From an uncultured bacterium (lineage in GTDB: Bacteria; Desulfobacterota; DSM-4660; Desulfatiglandales; JALVMZ01), in NCBI GenBank assembly GCA_965613025.1, contig CBFDUE010000002.1, positions 13,974 through 77,973 on the forward strand: a DNA stretch of 64,000 nt, in the 5' to 3' direction. How positions within the stretch are numbered: position 1 is the stretch's first letter; the number at the start of each line of letters is the position of its first letter. The notes under the pieces were generated by a model. The model was not told the DNA's origin. It saw only the letters and a list, made by a program, of their open reading frames with translations, and did not search any database. Shown here piece after piece: positions 11,504-53,112 of the stretch. The position numbers and the translations under genes were made by a program.

Positions 11504-12553
11504 TTAAACTACGACTATCTTTTCTGCCGGTTCTGAAACCACTTCACCTATGATAGTAGCATCCTGTATTCCGTTATTTTTTAGTTCCTGGATCAAAGAA
11601 AGAGAATGTCTTTCTGCAATACATATGAGCAGGCCTCCTGAGGTCTGTGGATCAAATAGAATTGGTTCAATTGATCTATCCACTTTAGATTGAATCTCTA
11701 CCATTGACTGGCGAAATTCGCGATTTCTGTATGTCCCTGCTGGGATAAGCCCCATCTTGGCATATTCAACTGCCTTAGGAATTATGGGCAATTTATCAGA
11801 GTAGATCTTAAACCCCAATTTGGACTCTTCAACCATCTCACACATATGGCCTAAGAGTCCAAATCCAGTGATATCAGTGCAGGCTGTCACCGGAAATCGG
11901 AGCATCACCTCAGAGGCCTTTCTATTAAGAGTGGCCATAAGTTGAGTTACATAATCAATTACGGATTGATCTGCAAGCCCCCCTTTTATAGCAGTGTTAA
12001 TTATTCCAGTTCCAAGAGGCTTTGTAAGGATCAGTTTATCTCCCAGTTTAAATCCATCCTTTCTTATTATACGCTCTGGATGTATAAAGCCAGTTACTGA
12101 TAGGCCATACTTAAGCTCTTTATCTTCCACACTGTGTCCTCCCACAAGTACCACTTCAGCCTCTTTCATCTTCTCAAGTCCCCCCTGTAAAACCTCCCTT
12201 AAAACAGAGATATCCATATCTTCCCTTGGAAATGCAACAAGATTCATGGCGGTCTTGGGGACTCCTCCCATTGCATAGATATCGCTCAAGGCATTGGCAG
12301 CAGCAATCTTTCCAAACCAATATGGATCATCCACAATGGGGGTAAAAAAATCTACGGTCTGGATAATGGCAAGTTCATCATTTATCTTATATACCCCAGC
12401 ATCATCTGCTCGTGCAAGACCCACGATCAGATTGGGGTCAGTAGGAAATTCCATTCCACACAAAGCTCTATCCAGATCCCCTGGAGGCAGTTTTGAAGCT
12501 CAACCTGAGCCTTTAACCGTTTCGGTCAAGCGAAGTCCTTCTTTAACTTTCAT
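11504..12553 (-). CDS. selD: Selenide, water dikinase, selenocysteine-containing (in-frame UGA at 12502..12500)
   Basis: The ORF track begins at 12463, but the frame continues upstream as MKVKEGLRLTETVKGSG-TGA-ASKLPPGDLDRALCGMEF. The UGA sits at the Cys17 position of the E. coli SelD glycine-rich loop (GAGCGCK). The remainder is a typical AIR-synthase-fold SelD. Confidence 0.85.
12461..12500 (-). promoter_or_regulatory. Candidate bacterial SECIS hairpin directly 3' of the selD UGA
   Basis: On the minus strand the outer stem is AGCUU/GAGCU. The inner stem is UCCAG-GGGAU-CUGGA (12485..12471). The structure begins at the UGA. Folded by eye only. Confidence 0.45.
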
Positions 12554-12560
12554 GAACTTC

Positions 12561-13670
12561 TTACTCCTTTTTATTATTTAAAATCTGATTCAGATCATGG
12601 ATAAGTTCTTCAATGTCAATATTATATCTCTTTGAGACATTTTCAAGAGGTTCAAAAAGTGCTTCACAGCATATGCATATACCTAATCTTTTATCATATT
12701 TTTTGAATATCTTCTCTGTCTCTCTGTATCTGGACACCACATCCAGAACGGTCATATCTGGTGTGATAGAGCGACGATCATTATTAATATTATCTGTATT
12801 CATAATACTTCTTTCGGATTCTAATATCTCCTTAAGAGCAATCGGTATATATTGAATAACTTCGGTTATCTTGGTTGCAGGGGTAGGTTTTGAAAGAAAA
12901 CCAGCAAGTCTATTTACTTTTGATGCAATTATTGCTGCATTTAATATCTCATAGCCTGCTGCTAATAGAGCTGATACAATACCTGTCAAGGTATCACCAG
13001 TGCCACCAATGGCCTCTAAGGCCTCTACATAAGGATAATCAATCTCTGCCTTAATTCCTTCCTCATCTGCAATATAGTCCTTTTTACCCTTTACCATAAG
13101 AATGCGTGAGGCATTTTTATGCCTATATGCACGAACTATCAGCTCAGGAACACTATTTTGTTCATGAAGGATAAATCCACGAGTATAGAATGGATGAGGA
13201 GCCTCTTCATCTGCAAGGAAGGCGAGCTCTCCTGCATCAGGTGTAAAAAGATCATAAGAGTTAGCCTGTCCACTCATTTTCGCCCCATACATAAACCCTG
13301 CATCAGCGATTAAAAGGGGTCTATGTCTCATTTCCTCAATGGAAAAGAGCACCTTGTTGTGCCAGTCAACATCTGGTTGAAGATAATGAAAAGTGATGCT
13401 ATTAAATTCTCTGTGTCTTAGATTATTGCTGAGATACTCATAGAGCCTTCTGCTCCCTTCGCCGGTTCCGATATCTCCGACCAAAAACACAGTAGGTCCT
13501 GAAATATCCAAGATTTCACATGCCTTTAAAGCAGCTGCAATGAGAGCAGATGTCCCTCTGCTAACAGGCACCTCCCTTCCTTCTATCAATACCATATTCT
13601 GCTTTAATTTAACCTTCCCTTCTATAAGAGGAAATCCATTATCAGGCACAGTTCCCACTATGGCAAACAT
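12561..13670 (-). CDS. YjeF_C/NnrD-like (ribokinase-fold) protein fused to a C-terminal DUF1858-like redox domain
   Basis: LIADAGFMY...LFTPDAGELAFL...ILMVKGKKDYIA...AIGGTGDTLTGIVSALLAAG parallels the NAD(P)HX dehydratase/carbohydrate kinase motifs. The C-terminal ITPDMTVLDVVSRY...LGICICCEALFEPLENVSKRYNIDIEELIHDLN resembles DUF1858. The family call is made from memory. Confidence 0.5.
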   Translation of the reverse strand: MFAIVGTVPDNGFPLIEGKVKLKQNMVLIEGREVPVSRGTSALIAAALKACEILDISGPTVFLVGDIGTGEGSRRLYEYLSNNLRHREFNSITFHYLQPDVDWHNKVLFSIEEMRHRPLLIADAGFMYGAKMSGQANSYDLFTPDAGELAFLADEEAPHPFYTRGFILHEQNSVPELIVRAYRHKNASRILMVKGKKDYIADEEGIKAEIDYPYVEALEAIGGTGDTLTGIVSALLAAGYEILNAAIIASKVNRLAGFLSKPTPATKITEVIQYIPIALKEILESERSIMNTDNINNDRRSITPDMTVLDVVSRYRETEKIFKKYDKRLGICICCEALFEPLENVSKRYNIDIEELIHDLNQILNNKKE

Positions 13671-14209
13671 CGTCTTTTCATCTCCTCAAAGGCAAGCTGA
13701 AGTGCATAACCGCAGAGGGTGTGTCCGAGTTCCCTTGGCTCTGGCACCTCCTTTATTGATTTTCCAACAAGCCTTTGTGCAAGATAAGGCACATCAGGGC
13801 AGCCTCCCCCTGATATATTAACAATGATAAGTGTATCTTTTTCAACAGTAAGTTTCATATTGGCAGCTCGCACCATCAGGAATTTTCCATAGTCCTTGGC
13901 ATGAAAAAGGTCAACCGGTTTTAGCAATGGGCTATTTTCAGGGACCACATCCATTGGAGTTATTCCTTCTTCTTCAAGAATTCTTAGTATATTTAATTCT
14001 TCAATAAGAGGAAATTCTATCACAAGATCACAACCTGAGCGTATCTCAGGAGGGGGGCCCATCACTCTGACCTTCCATCCTTTTTCTTTAAGAATATTCT
14101 CCGCCCTTATTACCTCACTTGTGTTATGAAATACAAGAATTCCCAAATCTGTCTTTAAAGATGCCTGATCCTTCTTTGTTTTACCTTTAAAAAGCTTTAA
14201 GATAGACAC
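13658..14209 (-). CDS. DUF3343 (putative Se/S carrier-like) domain protein with an extra C-terminal domain
   Basis: The N-terminal half LGILVFHNTSEVIRAENILKEKGWKVRVMGPPPEIRSGCDLVIEF fits the DUF3343 pattern. The C-terminal roughly 100 aa (GGGCP, terminal CLP) is unassigned. Confidence 0.55.
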   Translation of the reverse strand: MSILKLFKGKTKKDQASLKTDLGILVFHNTSEVIRAENILKEKGWKVRVMGPPPEIRSGCDLVIEFPLIEELNILRILEEEGITPMDVVPENSPLLKPVDLFHAKDYGKFLMVRAANMKLTVEKDTLIIVNISGGGCPDVPYLAQRLVGKSIKEVPEPRELGHTLCGYALQLAFEEMKRRCLP

Positions 14210-14215
14210 AAATCT

Positions 14216-14434
14216 TTAATCCTTTTCAATTATTATACGATATCCCTGGGCTTCAGCCTGTATATCTACCACTTTCCAACCCTGACTCTCCGCAGCACGG
14301 CTTACATTTTCCTTAGAGGTATCAGTATCAACCAGTATCTCTATCTGACCACTGTTGAGTTTCTTAATCTCATCCAGTGTCATAAGCACTGGTTGGGGGC
14401 AGCTAAGCCCTCTGGCATCTACCACATTTGCCAT
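14216..14434 (-). CDS. yedF: TusA/SirA-family sulfur/selenium carrier (YedF-like)
   Basis: It carries the CPxP motif DARGLSCPQPV. The ATG at 14434 is preceded by AGGAGGG. The ORF-track start at 14491 would overlap yedE. Confidence 0.8.
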   Translation of the reverse strand: MANVVDARGLSCPQPVLMTLDEIKKLNSGQIEILVDTDTSKENVSRAAESQGWKVVDIQAEAQGYRIIIEKD

Positions 14435-14451
14435 ACTAATTTCCCTCCTTT

Positions 14452-15543
14452 CTAAGCCTTTTTTCTCATTGTTATGCCAATAAATAGACATATCAAAAGG
14501 CCAATTATAACGGCAGCCATTCCATGAGGACCAATCCCCTTAGGTGAGCTTGCAAGCCCAAAATTATGAGAAAATCCGGCCCCCACTATCATACCTATAA
14601 CAAAGATTGCAGCATCTCCATCTCCTTCACCAGAAAGGAAGAGTTGCCTTCCTGGGCATCCTCCTGCCAATGCAAAGGCAAGTCCTGCAAGCGTCATTCC
14701 AGCAAAGTTCCATATGGTCATATTGTGTGCAACAGGCTGTTTTACAAAACCAGGGTGAAATTGCCCTAAGATTAGATTTGTAATAAATGCTACTGTAACA
14801 AAGGCAACCACTCCTGAAAAAAGGTGTGTCTGTCTAAACAGTATCAGATCCCTGAACGCACCCATTGTGCAAAAACGGCTTCTCTGTGCAATAAATCCTA
14901 TTATAAGACCAAAGATTAAAGATACCAATAAAGGTGCATGCATTGCCCCAGGACCTTTTACACTATAAAATAAAATCCCACTCTTTGTTTCACCATCAAC
15001 TGGAGGAAAGATGAAACGAAGAGCGAGAAATCCAAGCATTATTAATGGAAATAGCCATCCTACAGAGGTATATGTAGGTTGAGTGCGTCCCAGATTATAT
15101 CCTGCCTTAAAAAATAGTGTCCCAATCCATATGCCAAAGACAAGTCCTAATAGGCCGAATATGGCATTACCATCACCGCCAGCAAGTCTTAGCAGTGCTC
15201 TCCAGGGGCACCCCAAGAAGACCAGGGCACCGATCATGGCAAAGACCCCAAGGATAAACCTCACTATAGGAGCAGACCCTACTCTTGGTCTAAATTCCTT
15301 AAAGACATATGCTGCAATTAGAGAGCCAAGCACAAATCCGATAATTTCAGGTCTCATATACTGAACAACACCTGCACGATGAAGCCCGATGGCTCCTGCA
15401 ATATCCCTTTCAAAACATGCAACACAGATTCCCATATTTGGAGGATTTCCAAGTTTCTGCAATAGTGGTGCCAGTATCCCAATAATAGCTCCAACCCCAA
15501 TTATTCCCCATTTAGTTGCAAAGATGTTACCTATCCGTTTCAT
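14452..15543 (-). CDS. yedE: YedE/FdhT-family putative selenium/sulfur transporter
   Basis: A polytopic membrane protein with the conserved GICVACFERD Cys motif and its repeat half (RSRFCTMGAFRD). The ATG at 15543 is preceded by GGGAGG. Confidence 0.8.
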   Translation of the reverse strand: MKRIGNIFATKWGIIGVGAIIGILAPLLQKLGNPPNMGICVACFERDIAGAIGLHRAGVVQYMRPEIIGFVLGSLIAAYVFKEFRPRVGSAPIVRFILGVFAMIGALVFLGCPWRALLRLAGGDGNAIFGLLGLVFGIWIGTLFFKAGYNLGRTQPTYTSVGWLFPLIMLGFLALRFIFPPVDGETKSGILFYSVKGPGAMHAPLLVSLIFGLIIGFIAQRSRFCTMGAFRDLILFRQTHLFSGVVAFVTVAFITNLILGQFHPGFVKQPVAHNMTIWNFAGMTLAGLAFALAGGCPGRQLFLSGEGDGDAAIFVIGMIVGAGFSHNFGLASSPKGIGPHGMAAVIIGLLICLFIGITMRKKA

Positions 15544-15613
15544 AAGAACCTCCCAACCCATTAAATATTTAAACTTTATCTGCCAATTGCATAGAGATTA
15601 CAATATCCAGCAT

Positions 15614-15733
15614 GAGACCTTTGCATAACCCCCTTTTACACTGGGGGTTATACCCCCAGATCCCCAAAGATTTACTGAAAATAACCCATAATTACAGCAT
15701 TTTTCTGAGAGCTTTGAAAAATTCAAAGCTCTC
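15614..15733 (+). mobile_element. MITE-like intergenic repeat, copy 1 (orientation A)
   Basis: 120 bp. The left end is GAGACCTTTG and the right end is the hairpin GAGAGCTTTGAA-AAA-TTCAAAGCTCTC. An internal TGGGGGT-TAT-ACCCCCA hairpin is present. It is flanked by direct CAGCAT (15608-15613) and CAGCAT (15734-15739). Confidence 0.8.
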
Positions 15734-15965
15734 CAGCATATTAGTCGTTTCTCCTACCTGCTTTGCTTTTTATCTAAAAGATTAATATGGTTTGAACTTA
15801 TTATCTCTAAAACCGATTTGTCAAATAGGAAATTTCTATAGTTTTTTGGATCTCTATAGGCAATTTCTTTAAAAATGAAGATTAGGGATTTACATGGCTG
15901 GGATCCTATTAATCATTTTTACAAAAATGATCATTTATGGTAATTGCGCCTCCATATCCTTTCTC

Positions 15966-17045
15966 TCATGGCAGTTCGGGAGGGTATTGTTTTATCTTTT
16001 CCGCACCTTTTAAGACGGCAAGCCCGCCGTATGCCAAGGCCTCCAGTTCGTCTTCGCCTGGAAACACCAGAACATTTCCAAGAAAACCCACCCGTTCCTT
16101 GATTTCTTCAACAATGGTCTCAGAGCGTGCAAGATTGCCTGTGAGAACCACTGCATCTATCTTCCCCTTCAATACAGTGGCCATAGAACCTATATCCTTG
16201 CTTACTTGGTAAGCCAAGGCCTGGAGCACCATACGGGCATTTTGCTCCCCCCTTTTGGCCCTTTGTTCCACTTCCACCATATTATGGGTCCCTAAATAAG
16301 AGGATACCCCTCCTTGAGTAAATAGCTTGCTTTGCACTTCCTTATGAGTGAATTGTCCTGAAAAACAGAGTTCCAAAACATCAAGCAGGGGCAGAGAGCC
16401 TGTCCGCTGGGGTGTAAACGGCCCTTCGCTTAGCCCGTGAGATCCATCTATGATTCTACCCTCGCGGTAGGCAACTATGGTGATTCCCCCGCCAAGGTGG
16501 GCTATCACAAAACGGGCCTTCTTATAATCTATATTGAGTCGAATGGCAGCACGTCGTGCAGCAGATTTCTGGTTCAGCACATGAAAGGCGGCCCTTCTTT
16601 CAATCCCCTTTAGTCCCGAAAACCTGGCAATATCATCCATTTCATCCGTGGAAGGGGAATCATAAATAATGGCCTCTGTTTTATGGCGCCGGGCTATTTC
16701 AAGGGCCAGCTCTGGCCCAACATTGGAAGGATGCCAGCCATACTTACAGGATCGGAGATCCTGAACCATAATTTCATTGATCAGGTATGCGCCGCTTTCC
16801 ACAGGCCGGGTCAGAGCACCTCTGCTTACAACAAGGTGCAAGGGGGCCAGTTTCATTTTGTGTTGAGTCAAGACCCCTTCTAAGGTCTTACGATGCAGTT
16901 CCATCCATGCCTCATAGGTATCCATGCCCCGGAGTCTTTCTGGACTATGGTTATGGTCCTCACGAAAGATCTGTTTTTCTCCCTCAAATAGTCCCACCTT
17001 AGTGGAAGTGGAGCCAATATTTATGACAAGAATTCGATTCATCAT
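15966..17045 (-). CDS. buk: Butyrate kinase
   Basis: The N-terminus MMNRILVINIGSTSTKVGLF and overall ASKHA-fold Buk similarity support the call. The start overlaps the upstream stop (ATGA). Confidence 0.85.
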   Translation of the reverse strand: MMNRILVINIGSTSTKVGLFEGEKQIFREDHNHSPERLRGMDTYEAWMELHRKTLEGVLTQHKMKLAPLHLVVSRGALTRPVESGAYLINEIMVQDLRSCKYGWHPSNVGPELALEIARRHKTEAIIYDSPSTDEMDDIARFSGLKGIERRAAFHVLNQKSAARRAAIRLNIDYKKARFVIAHLGGGITIVAYREGRIIDGSHGLSEGPFTPQRTGSLPLLDVLELCFSGQFTHKEVQSKLFTQGGVSSYLGTHNMVEVEQRAKRGEQNARMVLQALAYQVSKDIGSMATVLKGKIDAVVLTGNLARSETIVEEIKERVGFLGNVLVFPGEDELEALAYGGLAVLKGAEKIKQYPPELP

Positions 17046-17923
17046 ATTCTTTTTCCCTGCAAAAGCCCCAATACAATATTATGTAGCCACGATTCTGGGG
17101 AGTCCGCAGGTGAATGTATAATTACAGGTGCCTTTGTTCCTGCCACAACACCTGCCACCTCAAACGGCCCCAGGCATCTCACAAACTGGGTGCTCAAAAG
17201 GGCAGAATCCAGATCAGGAAACAAGTAGATATCCACATCTCCAGGCACCGGGCTTTTAATACCCTTATAATAGGCAGCTTCGGCCGATTCTGCGTTGTCC
17301 ATGGCCAATGGGCCTTCCACAATGACATCGCCCAGTTGGCCCCTCTCTGCCATTTTGGAAAGCGCAGCCGCATCCACAGTAGAGGGAATGGCAGGATTGA
17401 CTATCTCAATAGGGCCAAGGGCAGCCACCTTTGGGTGCTCTATGCCAAGGGTCTCGGCAACACTGGCCGCATTTTGTATGATCCCCGCCTTTTCCTTCAG
17501 GCTGGGTAAGCTATGGATCAGGGTATCAGTGAACAATGTGAGTCGGCCGTCTCTGATAGAACGAAAGACGCTTACATAGCTGATCACCCTGGTTCCATTG
17601 TCTGTGGCAGTAAGATGATCCAGAAATGAGAGTAGATCTCTGTCCAATGTGCCCGTATCCAGAATTGCCTCCACCTTACCGCTTTCCAACAATTCCAAGG
17701 CCACATCTCTTGCCTCTCTTATGCCCGCATTAGGTAAAAGGAGGTCTATCTGGGGGTGCAATCCTACTAAAGGTTGTCCACAGGCAACAGGATCAATCCA
17801 GCCGTGATCACGCGCTATCAGGATTGCCTTAAATGCAGCAGAATCGCCACCTCCTGTTATGGCCACTCTTCTTCTTTTAAAGGATTTTGCAAGCTCAAGA
17901 ATCGTGTTAAGACTTACATCCAT
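17042..17923 (-). CDS. Phosphate acetyl/butyryl-transferase family protein (divergent paralog)
   Basis: 293 aa with PTA_PTB-like similarity, for example PKVAALGPIEIVNP and LAMDNAESAEAA. Confidence 0.6.
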   Translation of the reverse strand: MDVSLNTILELAKSFKRRRVAITGGGDSAAFKAILIARDHGWIDPVACGQPLVGLHPQIDLLLPNAGIREARDVALELLESGKVEAILDTGTLDRDLLSFLDHLTATDNGTRVISYVSVFRSIRDGRLTLFTDTLIHSLPSLKEKAGIIQNAASVAETLGIEHPKVAALGPIEIVNPAIPSTVDAAALSKMAERGQLGDVIVEGPLAMDNAESAEAAYYKGIKSPVPGDVDIYLFPDLDSALLSTQFVRCLGPFEVAGVVAGTKAPVIIHSPADSPESWLHNIVLGLLQGKRI

Positions 17924-17931
17924 ACCTGCTT

Positions 17932-18837
17932 TTACCTCCTACCAGCAGTTGCCAGAACAAGGCCAAGGGCAAGGTTTTTGATGCGCACCTCGTAGCCGTC
18001 CGAACGTGATGGGGTAAGGATAATCATGCCCCCACCAACAGTAACACATTGCCGTATGCCGGCCATAATGTGGTCAATCGTCTTGACCAGAATGTTGCCC
18101 GCATTAATGTGAGGCACGAGAAAGATGTCAGGAAACGTTTCAGGGTTGAGACCGTCACCCTTGGCCAGTTCCAGTAGGTCTGTATAGGGCAGGAACTCAC
18201 ATGGCCCGAATTTACCTGCAGCCGCACCCTGTCTCAGTATGCGTGCTTCTTCCAGGGCTTGGGAAGATTCCTCTCGAAGATGCTTAGCGGCAAGTACCAT
18301 CACACGGGGAGATGCATAGCCCAAGGATCGAAATACCTGTATAGCGTTGGTCAAGATTTTTTCCTTGGAAGTCAGATCAGGCGTAATGTTTAAGCCAGGA
18401 TCTGTAATTGCAAAGATCTTTTTGATAGCAGGGAGGTAATGAAAGCAGATAGCGCATGGGGTCTGTTCAGGGGCCAGGCGTTTCGTAACACGGATCAGAG
18501 AGCGAAAGAGGTAGGCGGTGAGTATGTTTCCTTTTACGGCAAAGCTCACTTCATTATTTACCATCATATCAAGGCATAGATCAGCCGCTTCTTGGGGGTC
18601 AACCCTCTGGATCATCTCCATGTTACTAATGGGTATTCCACTCTGTTGAGCTAAGGAAATGATACGCTCCCTATCACCAACAAGCACCGGAGCAATGAGA
18701 CCCTCTCTCATGCCATCCATCACAGCATGGAGCACATCTGTATTATAAGGAAATAGGATAGCAGCTCTTTTAGCACCGATCTCTTTTGCCCGATTCATAA
18801 TCTCATCAAATGTTCTTATCATCTCCTCTCTCTCCAC
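17932..18837 (-). CDS. ptb: Phosphate butyryltransferase
   Basis: 301 aa with typical Ptb layout: FDEIMNRAKE...AAILFPYN...GLIAPVLVGD...PRVMVLAA...NAGNILVK. Confidence 0.8.
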   Translation of the reverse strand: MEREEMIRTFDEIMNRAKEIGAKRAAILFPYNTDVLHAVMDGMREGLIAPVLVGDRERIISLAQQSGIPISNMEMIQRVDPQEAADLCLDMMVNNEVSFAVKGNILTAYLFRSLIRVTKRLAPEQTPCAICFHYLPAIKKIFAITDPGLNITPDLTSKEKILTNAIQVFRSLGYASPRVMVLAAKHLREESSQALEEARILRQGAAAGKFGPCEFLPYTDLLELAKGDGLNPETFPDIFLVPHINAGNILVKTIDHIMAGIRQCVTVGGGMIILTPSRSDGYEVRIKNLALGLVLATAGRR

Positions 18838-21507: not shown

Positions 21508-21627
21508 GAGAGCTTTGAATTTTTCAAAGCTCTCATAAAAAGGCTGTAATTATGGGTTATTTTAAGTTAATTTTTGGGGGTCTGGGGGTGTAACCCCCAA
21601 TGTAAAAAGAGGTAATGCAAAGGTCTC
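21508..21627 (-). mobile_element. MITE-like intergenic repeat, copy 2 (orientation B)
   Basis: 120 bp reverse complement of the copy 1/3 consensus. It is flanked by direct CAGGTC (21502-21507) and CAGGTC (21628-21633). Confidence 0.8.
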
Positions 21628-37854: not shown

Positions 37855-37973
37855 GAGAGCTTTACATAACCCTTTTCACACTGGGGGTTACACCCCCAGA
37901 CCCCCAAAAATTAACTTAAAATAAGCCATAATTACAGCTTTTTTCTGAGAGCTTTGAATTTTTCAAAGCTCTC
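37855..37973 (+). mobile_element. MITE-like intergenic repeat, copy 3 (orientation A)
   Basis: 119 bp that fill the whole gap between two convergent stop codons (2 nt spare on each side). AATC abuts both ends. Confidence 0.8.
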
Positions 37974-52959: not shown

Positions 52960-53112
52960 GAGAGCTTTGAATTTTTCAAAGCTCTCATAAAAAAGCCGTA
53001 ATTATGGGATATTTTAAGTTAATTTTTGGGGGTCTGGTCTCCGACCCAGAGGGTCATCCGACCAGGAGGGGGGTGTAACCCCCAGTGTAAAAAGGTGTTA
53101 TGCAAAGCTCTC
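52960..53112 (-). mobile_element. MITE-like intergenic repeat, copy 4 (orientation B) with a nested 33-bp insertion
   Basis: 153 bp, flanked by direct AGATAA (52954-52959) and AGATAA (53113-53118). An extra segment (about 53035-53067) is absent from copies 1-3. Confidence 0.8.

Follow-up and report, generated by a model that had tools for sequence, protein, structure and literature searches.

A 64,000-nucleotide stretch of DNA from an uncultured bacterium of the Desulfobacterota (Desulfatiglandales, JALVMZ01; assembly GCA_965613025.1, contig CBFDUE010000002.1, positions 13,974 to 77,973), hereafter called the window, carries a five-gene operon on its minus strand that ends in a gene for selenophosphate synthetase (selD). 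Operons of this type are already known, and it is the two conserved extra components of this one, a double-domain carrier protein and a kinase-like protein, that are newly placed in context here. The operon starts with yedE (14452-15543, 363 aa, ATG at 15543) and continues with a tusA-like gene (14216-14434, 72 aa, motif GLSCPQP), a DUF3343/DUF8182 gene with a GTG start (13658-14209, 183 aa), a gene for a kinase-like protein with a DUF1858 domain (12561-13670, 369 aa) and selD (11504-12553, 349 aa), which has an in-frame TGA for selenocysteine at 12500-12502 (codon 18). Coordinates and spacings were read directly off the window sequence. From yedE to selD the spacings are exactly 17, 6, -13 and 7 nt, the negative value being a 13-nt overlap between the start of the kinase-like gene and the stop of the DUF3343/DUF8182 gene; the five-gene arrangement described in an earlier reading of the DNA alone (the sequence-only reading) is thereby borne out. 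Predicted internal terminators showed no excess over chance in the operon, and the promoter scan gave the same result. An identical five-gene set is present on two independent metagenome assemblies (loci L003 and L004 of the survey described below). Given that the five genes recur there and that the four-gene core of yedE, tusA, carrier and kinase-like genes recurs in 80 of 80 related species genomes, the genes do not lie side by side by chance.

Conservation of the four-gene core

Relatives of the kinase-like protein are encoded in at least 590 species, with one genome taken per GTDB species. The best 80 of these loci, mainly from metagenome-assembled genomes of Desulfobacterota and Nitrospirota (Thermodesulfovibrionales), were analyzed with their flanks and annotated by tblastn and clustering of open reading frames (ORFs); seven further contexts, from distant or fused members of the family, were analyzed as well. 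In every one of the 80 loci with enough upstream sequence, the DUF3343/DUF8182 gene borders on the start of the kinase-like gene or slightly overlaps it. Upstream sequence of 2 kb or more was available for 66 loci; in 64 of these yedE, and in 63 tusA, lies directly upstream of the pair. In both yedE exceptions (L040 and L065) selD is inserted between yedE-tusA and the carrier gene. Wherever the flanks are long enough, the genes for orthologs of the 369-aa and the 183-aa protein sit together with yedE and tusA, as the sequence-only reading would have it in treating the two proteins as members of a selenium operon. The quartet persists, in varying layouts, in family members of only 35-38% identity. 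The order is the standard one in L091; tusA and yedE have changed places in L093, where a DsrE-family gene lies downstream; yedE is split in L095; and in L088 and L089 a YedE-type gene lies downstream of the kinase-like gene.

In five representatives of 50%-identity clusters (P0245, P0246, P0247, P0249 and P0265), the Se_S_carrier (DUF3343) domain and the kinase-like domain even occur in one chain, linked by a long low-complexity stretch. For P0245, which is encoded right after yedE-tusA (L086), the families PF11823, PF26554 and PF01256 are all recorded, and the other four fusions retain the DUF8182 motifs GGGCPD and LC(S/G)(Y/F) in their sequence. The adjacency, the overlap of stop and start and the repeated fusion of these two genes argue strongly for joint action of the carrier and the kinase-like protein and for a functional membership of both in the YedE/TusA system. 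Judged from these sequence features, they most probably form a physical complex.

The YedE transporter and the TusA-type carrier

The assignment of the first gene product as a YedE-type transporter was substantiated by a whole-protein profile search, in which it scored 487.8 bits against TIGR04112 (seleno_YedE, cut-off 200) versus 29-54 bits against the models for the thiosulfate transporter TsuA, for which the cut-offs are 400-645 (top score 53.9, cut-off 400). It is a membrane protein with Pfam Sulf_transp matched over two stretches, and the genomic context that goes with seleno_YedE, selD and a tusA-like partner in the same operon, is present. The YedE proteins of the distant family members belong to TIGR04112 too (343-482 bits). 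On these sequence grounds YedE is a putative selenium transporter.

The 72-aa protein had been read as a TusA/YedF carrier, of which the first half stands. It matches TusA (PF01206) with 74.7 bits (cut-off 28.6), and its motif GLSCPQP is the CPxP active-site cysteine motif. YedF as defined by TIGR03527 is a protein of about 194 aa with a TusA domain and a DsrE-like domain; the 72-aa protein reaches 54.6 bits against this model (cut-off 110) and covers profile positions 1-66 of 194 only. Since it scores below the cut-off and corresponds to the N-terminal third of the model, we rejected it as a YedF in the strict TIGR03527 sense. The strict label is also wrong because the true long YedF survives in the window only as a relic, which is described further below. 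Genuine long YedF proteins (TIGR03527, 215-218 bits, 199-200 aa) are encoded in 11 of the 80 loci, often between the kinase-like gene and selD.

A side observation concerns the tusA-yedE-carrier-kinase variant of L093 and L094, in which a 118-aa DsrE/TusD-like protein is encoded after the kinase-like gene (L093, 7491-7847; L094, 2244-2600), as is a 152-aa protein without a family match. The 118-aa protein weakly resembles the C-terminal domain of YedF and may be a stand-alone substitute for the DsrE-like domain.

The DUF3343-DUF8182 carrier protein

The third protein had been described as a DUF3343 protein with an extra, unassigned C-terminal domain. Its N-terminal domain is indeed DUF3343 (Se_S_carrier, PF11823, 88.6 bits, cut-off 25), and the C-terminal domain can now be named DUF8182 (PF26554) from a precomputed match on the identical protein in L003 and L004. 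About 4,000 homologs were found, and among the 120 matches listed all have both PF11823 and PF26554. Four cysteines, C60 (in the GCD motif of DUF3343), C137 (GGGCPD), C166 (GHTLCGY) and C181, are invariant in 28 stand-alone homologs, and C60, C137 and C166 are retained in the carrier-kinase fusion proteins as well. The AlphaFold2 model (pLDDT 82.5) has two small alpha/beta domains. A fold search with this model returned only weak, ACT/PII-like matches (TM about 0.28), so that DUF8182 has no informative structural neighbor. NCBIfam holds no model for the 183-aa protein, a sequence search of the PDB found no solved relative of it, and neither DUF8182 nor the N-terminal half of the kinase-like protein gave a match when Pfam was scanned permissively.

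The kinase-like protein and its DUF1858 domain

Residues 1-290 of the 369-aa protein (12801-13670, minus strand) form a YjeF_C-like domain of the ribokinase fold, and residues 291-369 (12561-12800, minus strand) comprise a linker and a DUF1858 domain with a CICC motif; the domain composition proposed from the sequence is correct in both parts. The kinase-like domain matches Carb_kinase (PF01256) with 46.8 bits (cut-off 27), and NCBIfam gives only sub-threshold matches for the protein. Its AlphaFold2 model (pLDDT 88.4) has a ribokinase-like fold for which the best Foldseek matches, at 12-16% identity, are NnrD/YjeF_C proteins (TM0922, YxkO and EF1790), HMP and pyridoxal kinases, and ThiM. In a sequence search of the PDB, the C-terminal nucleotide-binding half alone aligns, with ThiM 3dzv at E 7.6e-7 and Nnr 2ax3 at E 2.3e-5.

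Comparison of 24 members of the family, down to 33% identity, showed that H95, Y96, D123-A124-G125, P144-D145, K194-G195, D198, E219, GGTGD222-226 and R254 are invariant and that E148 is nearly so. The motifs GGTGD, KGxxD, DAG and TPDxGE align to those of YjeF_C and ThiM, GGTGD corresponding to GGSGD of TM0922. With its catalytic and nucleotide-binding motifs invariant, the kinase-like protein looks like an active nucleotide-dependent enzyme. The same data bear on another view of it, namely that it does no catalysis on selenium and serves as a nucleotide-sensing or gating subunit, which controls the release of selenium from the carrier or couples uptake to energy status. The tight pairing and the fusions would fit a regulatory subunit equally well, and the kinase-like domain has no conserved cysteine; against this, the invariance of a full catalytic set (the Asp of GGTGD, KGxxD and DxxE) down to 33% identity exceeds what mere nucleotide binding would demand, and we regard such a role as quite improbable.

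The protein could also be an ordinary NAD(P)HX dehydratase (NnrD) that lies in the operon by chance. The Carb_kinase match is above threshold, and some sources annotate homologs as ADP-dependent NAD(P)H-hydrate dehydratase. The score against the NnrD-type model TIGR00196 (yjeF_cterm), however, is 41.9 bits, far below the cut-off of 129.85, and no fusion to YjeF_N occurs among the proteins examined. There are more than 4,500 homologs among 90%-identity clusters, and a library of 1.84 billion 50%-identity representatives yielded 505 matches at E<=1e-3; because just 505 clusters were matched, and the large NnrD family was not reached, the kinase-like proteins appear to be a compact family separate from the very large NnrD/YjeF_C family. 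They always occur within the yedE module and are sometimes fused to Se_S_carrier. Given the sub-equivalog score, this fixed context and the fusions to the carrier, we rejected the identification as a housekeeping NnrD, and a chance presence of that enzyme in the operon is highly improbable.

The DUF1858 domain (PF08984) scores 33.7 bits when searched alone (cut-off 32.2) and 29.2 bits within the whole protein. Against TIGR03980, the "hybrid cluster protein-associated redox disulfide domain", it reaches 33.5 bits, which is below the cut-off of 44.95. It has a conserved CxCC motif of the CxxC type. DUF1858 is fused to the kinase-like protein or encoded within 200 nt downstream of its gene in 26 of 73 loci, and besides the window, more than 30 further 90%-identity clusters show the fusion. 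A relative with 95% identity (L005, 4516-5626) has two overlapping ORFs instead, one for the kinase-like domain (293 aa) and one for DUF1858 (80 aa), owing to either a recent fusion or fission event or an assembly frameshift.

selD and the link to selenium

The last gene of the operon was read as a selenocysteine-containing SelD, and the profile TIGR00476 agrees (385.9 bits, cut-off 125). Its translation reads ...VKGSG-U-ASKLPPGDL..., the TGA occupying the catalytic Cys/Sec position in the N-terminal glycine-rich loop. Within the survey, selD lies no more than 10 kb from the module in 30 of 80 loci, and the in-frame TGA is found at the same codon in all 29 with a resolved N-terminus. Because the TGA is kept in all 29, the organisms with these selD genes can be taken to decode selenocysteine. 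Of 58 loci for which sufficient sequence was available, 16 have selD directly downstream on the same strand.

A candidate for the apical hairpin of a selenocysteine insertion sequence (SECIS), UCCAG-GGGAU-CUGGA (12471-12485, minus strand), starts 15 nt downstream of the UGA. It was seen in the fold with a z-score that is not significant. Across 23 homologs 87% of the cells are paired and covariation is near nil, not above that of shuffled alignments; the same stretch also encodes the conserved PPGDL. RNAalifold gave no consensus SECIS among selD homologs, and Rfam, run at gathering thresholds over all of the window, gave no match. By ARAGORN the 64-kb window has no tRNA-Sec, and it contains neither selA nor selB. 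A tblastn search of the window for selB, LysR, HGD-D and activase genes was negative. In another locus (L002), selB and a LysR regulator gene adjoin the module.

Genes for HGD-D-like proteins (with a double-cubane cluster), BcrAD/BadFG-type activases and LysR regulators are found near the module in 8, 6 and 7 of 80 loci, respectively (L002, 11800-13435; clusters c14 and c19 in L006-L085). All three, and selB as well, are likewise among the STRING associations given by Lin et al. (2015; PMC5322559). According to Haft, double-cubane proteins track SelD, and the recurring HGD-D-like neighbors fit the same pattern.

In 50 of the 80 loci, some of them with shortened flanks, selD was not found within 10 kb on either side. 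This would suit the main rival explanation, in which the module moves sulfur: thiosulfate, polysulfide or zero-valent sulfur would enter through a YeeE/YedE channel and be passed on as persulfide via TusA and DUF3343, in the manner of YeeE/YeeD (TsuA/TsuB) or of the YTD cluster. The same families (Sulf_transp and TusA) and the same phyla are involved, YTD clusters (yedE-tusA-dsrEFH) have been described in Desulfobacterota, DUF3343 is found in organisms without SelD (PMC5322559), and L093 and L094 have a DsrE-family gene after the module. What speaks against sulfur is the YedE protein itself, which across the family scores 343-488 bits against TIGR04112 versus 24-54 bits against the TsuA models with their cut-offs of 400-645. 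In addition, selD, long YedF, selB and LysR recur in or beside the module, and the DsrEFH of YTD clusters is replaced here by the DUF3343-DUF8182 protein and the kinase-like enzyme. Taken together, a function in sulfur trafficking seems distinctly unlikely.

A further explanation is that the carrier/kinase pair is engaged in the synthesis or recycling of a selenium compound or cofactor of low molecular weight, or serves a selenium trait beyond the supply of SelD; a hydroxylated small molecule might, for example, be phosphorylated and then carry selenium. The quartet often lacks an adjacent selD. All characterized relatives in the ribokinase superfamily (NnrD, ThiM, ThiD and PdxK) act on small molecules, and small-molecule pathways for selenium exist, such as that of selenoneine (bioRxiv 2022.04.13.486033). 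Nevertheless, no biosynthetic partner genes recur in the neighborhoods, and the kinase-like domain is repeatedly fused or translationally coupled to a cysteine carrier, which hints at a protein-bound substrate. We consider this explanation unlikely.

A model for selenium delivery

We contend that the operon is a selenium acquisition and delivery module in which the middle pair carries out a nucleotide-dependent step on carrier-bound selenium, a reading to which we assign a probability of roughly 0.55. The sequence-only reading had seen in the gene order a pipeline of uptake, carrier, activation and selenophosphate synthesis, which we regard as plausible but unproven. Selenium as the cargo, the order of its hand-over and the kinase-like activity with its chemistry are what we infer beyond the observations given above.

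In the model, YedE, as a member of the TIGR04112 subfamily, would first carry a selenium species across the membrane; the import of selenium is suggested by its homology to the YeeE thiosulfate channel. At the cytoplasmic face, the TusA-type protein would capture selenium on its CPxP cysteine, by analogy with YeeE/YeeD (PMC11073785), and selenium would then pass to three or four cysteines of the DUF3343-DUF8182 protein. The latter is envisaged as an obligate partner of the ribokinase-fold enzyme and probably forms a physical complex with it. The ribokinase-fold enzyme would next spend ATP or ADP on the carrier-bound selenium species. The chemistry that we favor would mirror that of NnrD, in which a hydroxyl is phosphorylated and the phosphate is then eliminated: the Se-OH of thiol-bound selenite would be phosphorylated, hydroxide would thus become a good leaving group, and further substitution by thiols and reduction would be possible even with selenium at trace concentrations. 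DUF1858 with its CxCC motif might supply or recycle redox-active thiols. Finally, reduced protein-bound selenium would be handed to the Sec-containing N-terminal loop of SelD and converted to selenophosphate.

The claim that the YjeF_C-like enzyme and the DUF3343-DUF8182 protein together catalyze an unrecognized nucleotide-dependent step of selenium assimilation upstream of SelD is tentative and, in our judgement, doubtful. Candidate reactions are the ATP-driven "dehydration" of thiol-bound selenite by phosphorylation and elimination, or a direct phosphoryl transfer to a carrier-bound perselenide.

Several points weigh against a selenium module built in this way. Selenium transport by YedE has not been demonstrated in any organism, and deletion of yedE in M. 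maripaludis gave no clear phenotype (PMC11097638). Every protein family of the module has sulfur-handling homologs (YeeE/YeeD, TusA and DsrE), and Lin et al. found no selenium-specific subfamily of DUF3343 (PMC5322559). To these are added the loci without selD within 10 kb and the presence of DUF1858 in only about one third of loci, for which reason this domain is not essential to the core. As for the chemistry, the N-terminal substrate half of the kinase-like protein cannot be aligned to any characterized enzyme; for this reason, and because the domain has no conserved cysteine, a phosphorylate-and-eliminate reaction on selenium is speculation.

Relation to known systems

The association of YedE, YedF, DUF3343 and SelD in selenium utilization was predicted by comparative genomics (Lin et al., 2015; PMC5322559), so that the literature link drawn in the sequence-only reading is correct, and the association is already encoded in Pfam and NCBIfam names. 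The operon resembles the clusters of Lin et al. in its TIGR04112 YedE, its TusA-fold partner, a DUF3343 with a conserved cysteine and a nearby selD. In that work, DUF3343 is a small protein of 80-100 aa and no kinase is named, whereas the DUF3343 of the present module is joined to DUF8182 in one protein and always comes with a YjeF_C-like enzyme, which may or may not carry DUF1858. Another difference is that the true long YedF of the window is merely a relic.

With YeeE/YeeD (TsuA/TsuB; PMC11073785), on whose mechanism the first two steps of the model are patterned, the operon shares a Sulf_transp channel and a small TusA-like cytoplasmic partner with a reactive cysteine. The YedE of the window, in contrast, clears the seleno_YedE cut-off by a wide margin and scores well short of the TsuA models, and YeeE/YeeD has no DUF3343/DUF8182, kinase-like or SelD components. 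The YTD cluster consists of yedE-tusA-dsrE and conserved hypothetical genes, with a DsrEFH type II complex, and is known from sulfur-disproportionating and sulfate-reducing Desulfobacterota (PMC8780430; PMC13490349). It occurs in the same phyla and likewise begins with the yedE-tusA pair followed by dedicated carrier proteins; these are DsrE-family sulfurtransferases in YTD clusters but a DUF3343-DUF8182 protein and a ribokinase-fold enzyme, linked to selD and yedF, in the present case.

NnrD/YjeF_C (PDB 3rph, 1kyh and 2ax3) shares with the kinase-like protein the ribokinase-like fold and the motifs GGxGDxLTG, TP(H/D)xGE, DA(D/G) and LKG, and it provides a precedent for ATP-driven removal of a hydroxyl. 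The kinase-like protein differs from it by an identity of only 12-16%, a score below the TIGR00196 cut-off, the unalignable N-terminal substrate half and an entirely different, fixed genomic context. Our literature search found nothing on DUF8182 or on a kinase tied to YedE or selenium. Neither the fixed quartet yedE-tusA-(DUF3343-DUF8182)-(YjeF_C-like enzyme) with its carrier-kinase fusions nor a ribokinase-fold enzyme proposed in selenium handling was found in the searchable literature.

The yedF relic and the upstream flank

Directly upstream of yedE, the 3' end of a long-form yedF gene of the TIGR03527 type persists as a relic (15569-15792, minus strand), which is interrupted by an insertion resembling a miniature inverted-repeat transposable element (MITE). 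The relic consists of about 33 degraded codons ending in ...QVGETTNMLD/IVISMQLADKV and a stop, and is covered by three collinear tblastn pieces corresponding to YedF residues 167-196. By nhmmer, part of the 420-nt yedE leader weakly matches the 3' ends of intact yedF genes from other loci. An intact YedF is encoded directly upstream of yedE in L021 and L055. Given the relic here and the intact YedF in related loci, the lineage of the window has lost YedF and kept the rest of the module.

The MITE-like insertion is 120 nt long (15614-15733, minus strand), with GAGAGCTTTG and CAAAGGTCTC as its terminal inverted repeats and ATGCTG as a 6-bp target duplication. Further copies are located in the window at approximately 21508-21625 and at 52960-53080, both on the plus strand, and a partial copy at 37947-37973. 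The insertion within the relic is absent from the near-identical contigs L003 and L004, indicating that it is recent. A conserved leader RNA or riboswitch upstream of yedE was considered and rejected, the leader being the degraded yedF 3' end plus the MITE; a permissive Rfam scan of the leader gave one weak sub-threshold match only.

The flank directly upstream (15966-18837, minus strand) contains a butyrate kinase gene (TIGR02707, 399.9 bits) and two tandem phosphate butyryltransferase-like paralogs, both of which score below the equivalog cut-offs. The G+C content is 0.46-0.49 in this butyrate kinase region versus about 0.40 in the selenium operon.

Implications for selenium acquisition in anaerobic bacteria

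The module bears on the question of how selenium is specifically taken up at trace levels and safely delivered to selenophosphate synthetase. As stated in a 2024 study, no selenium-specific transporter is known in any organism and YedEF is still hypothetical (PMC11097638). The present analysis sharpens the loose association of YedE, YedF and DUF3343 into a defined and widely conserved four-gene unit, in which an enzyme with a predicted intact nucleotide-dependent catalytic site is joined by an obligate multi-cysteine partner, and which thereby offers a compact testable system. It also supplies a functional context for DUF8182 and DUF1858 and corrects the routine annotations of the kinase-like family as "sugar kinase" or "NAD(P)H-hydrate dehydratase".

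The linkage of yedE to selD will not surprise a specialist; an obligate nucleotide-dependent enzyme in selenium delivery would be new, if true. The unit suggests that energy-dependent chemistry, beyond a passive relay of thiols, takes place ahead of SelD, and if this is true the quartet would be the first defined dedicated route from the cell exterior to SelD. Because in all related genomes examined the two middle genes are found alongside the gene for a putative selenium transporter, the module points to an undescribed ATP-dependent step in the acquisition of selenium by anaerobic bacteria.

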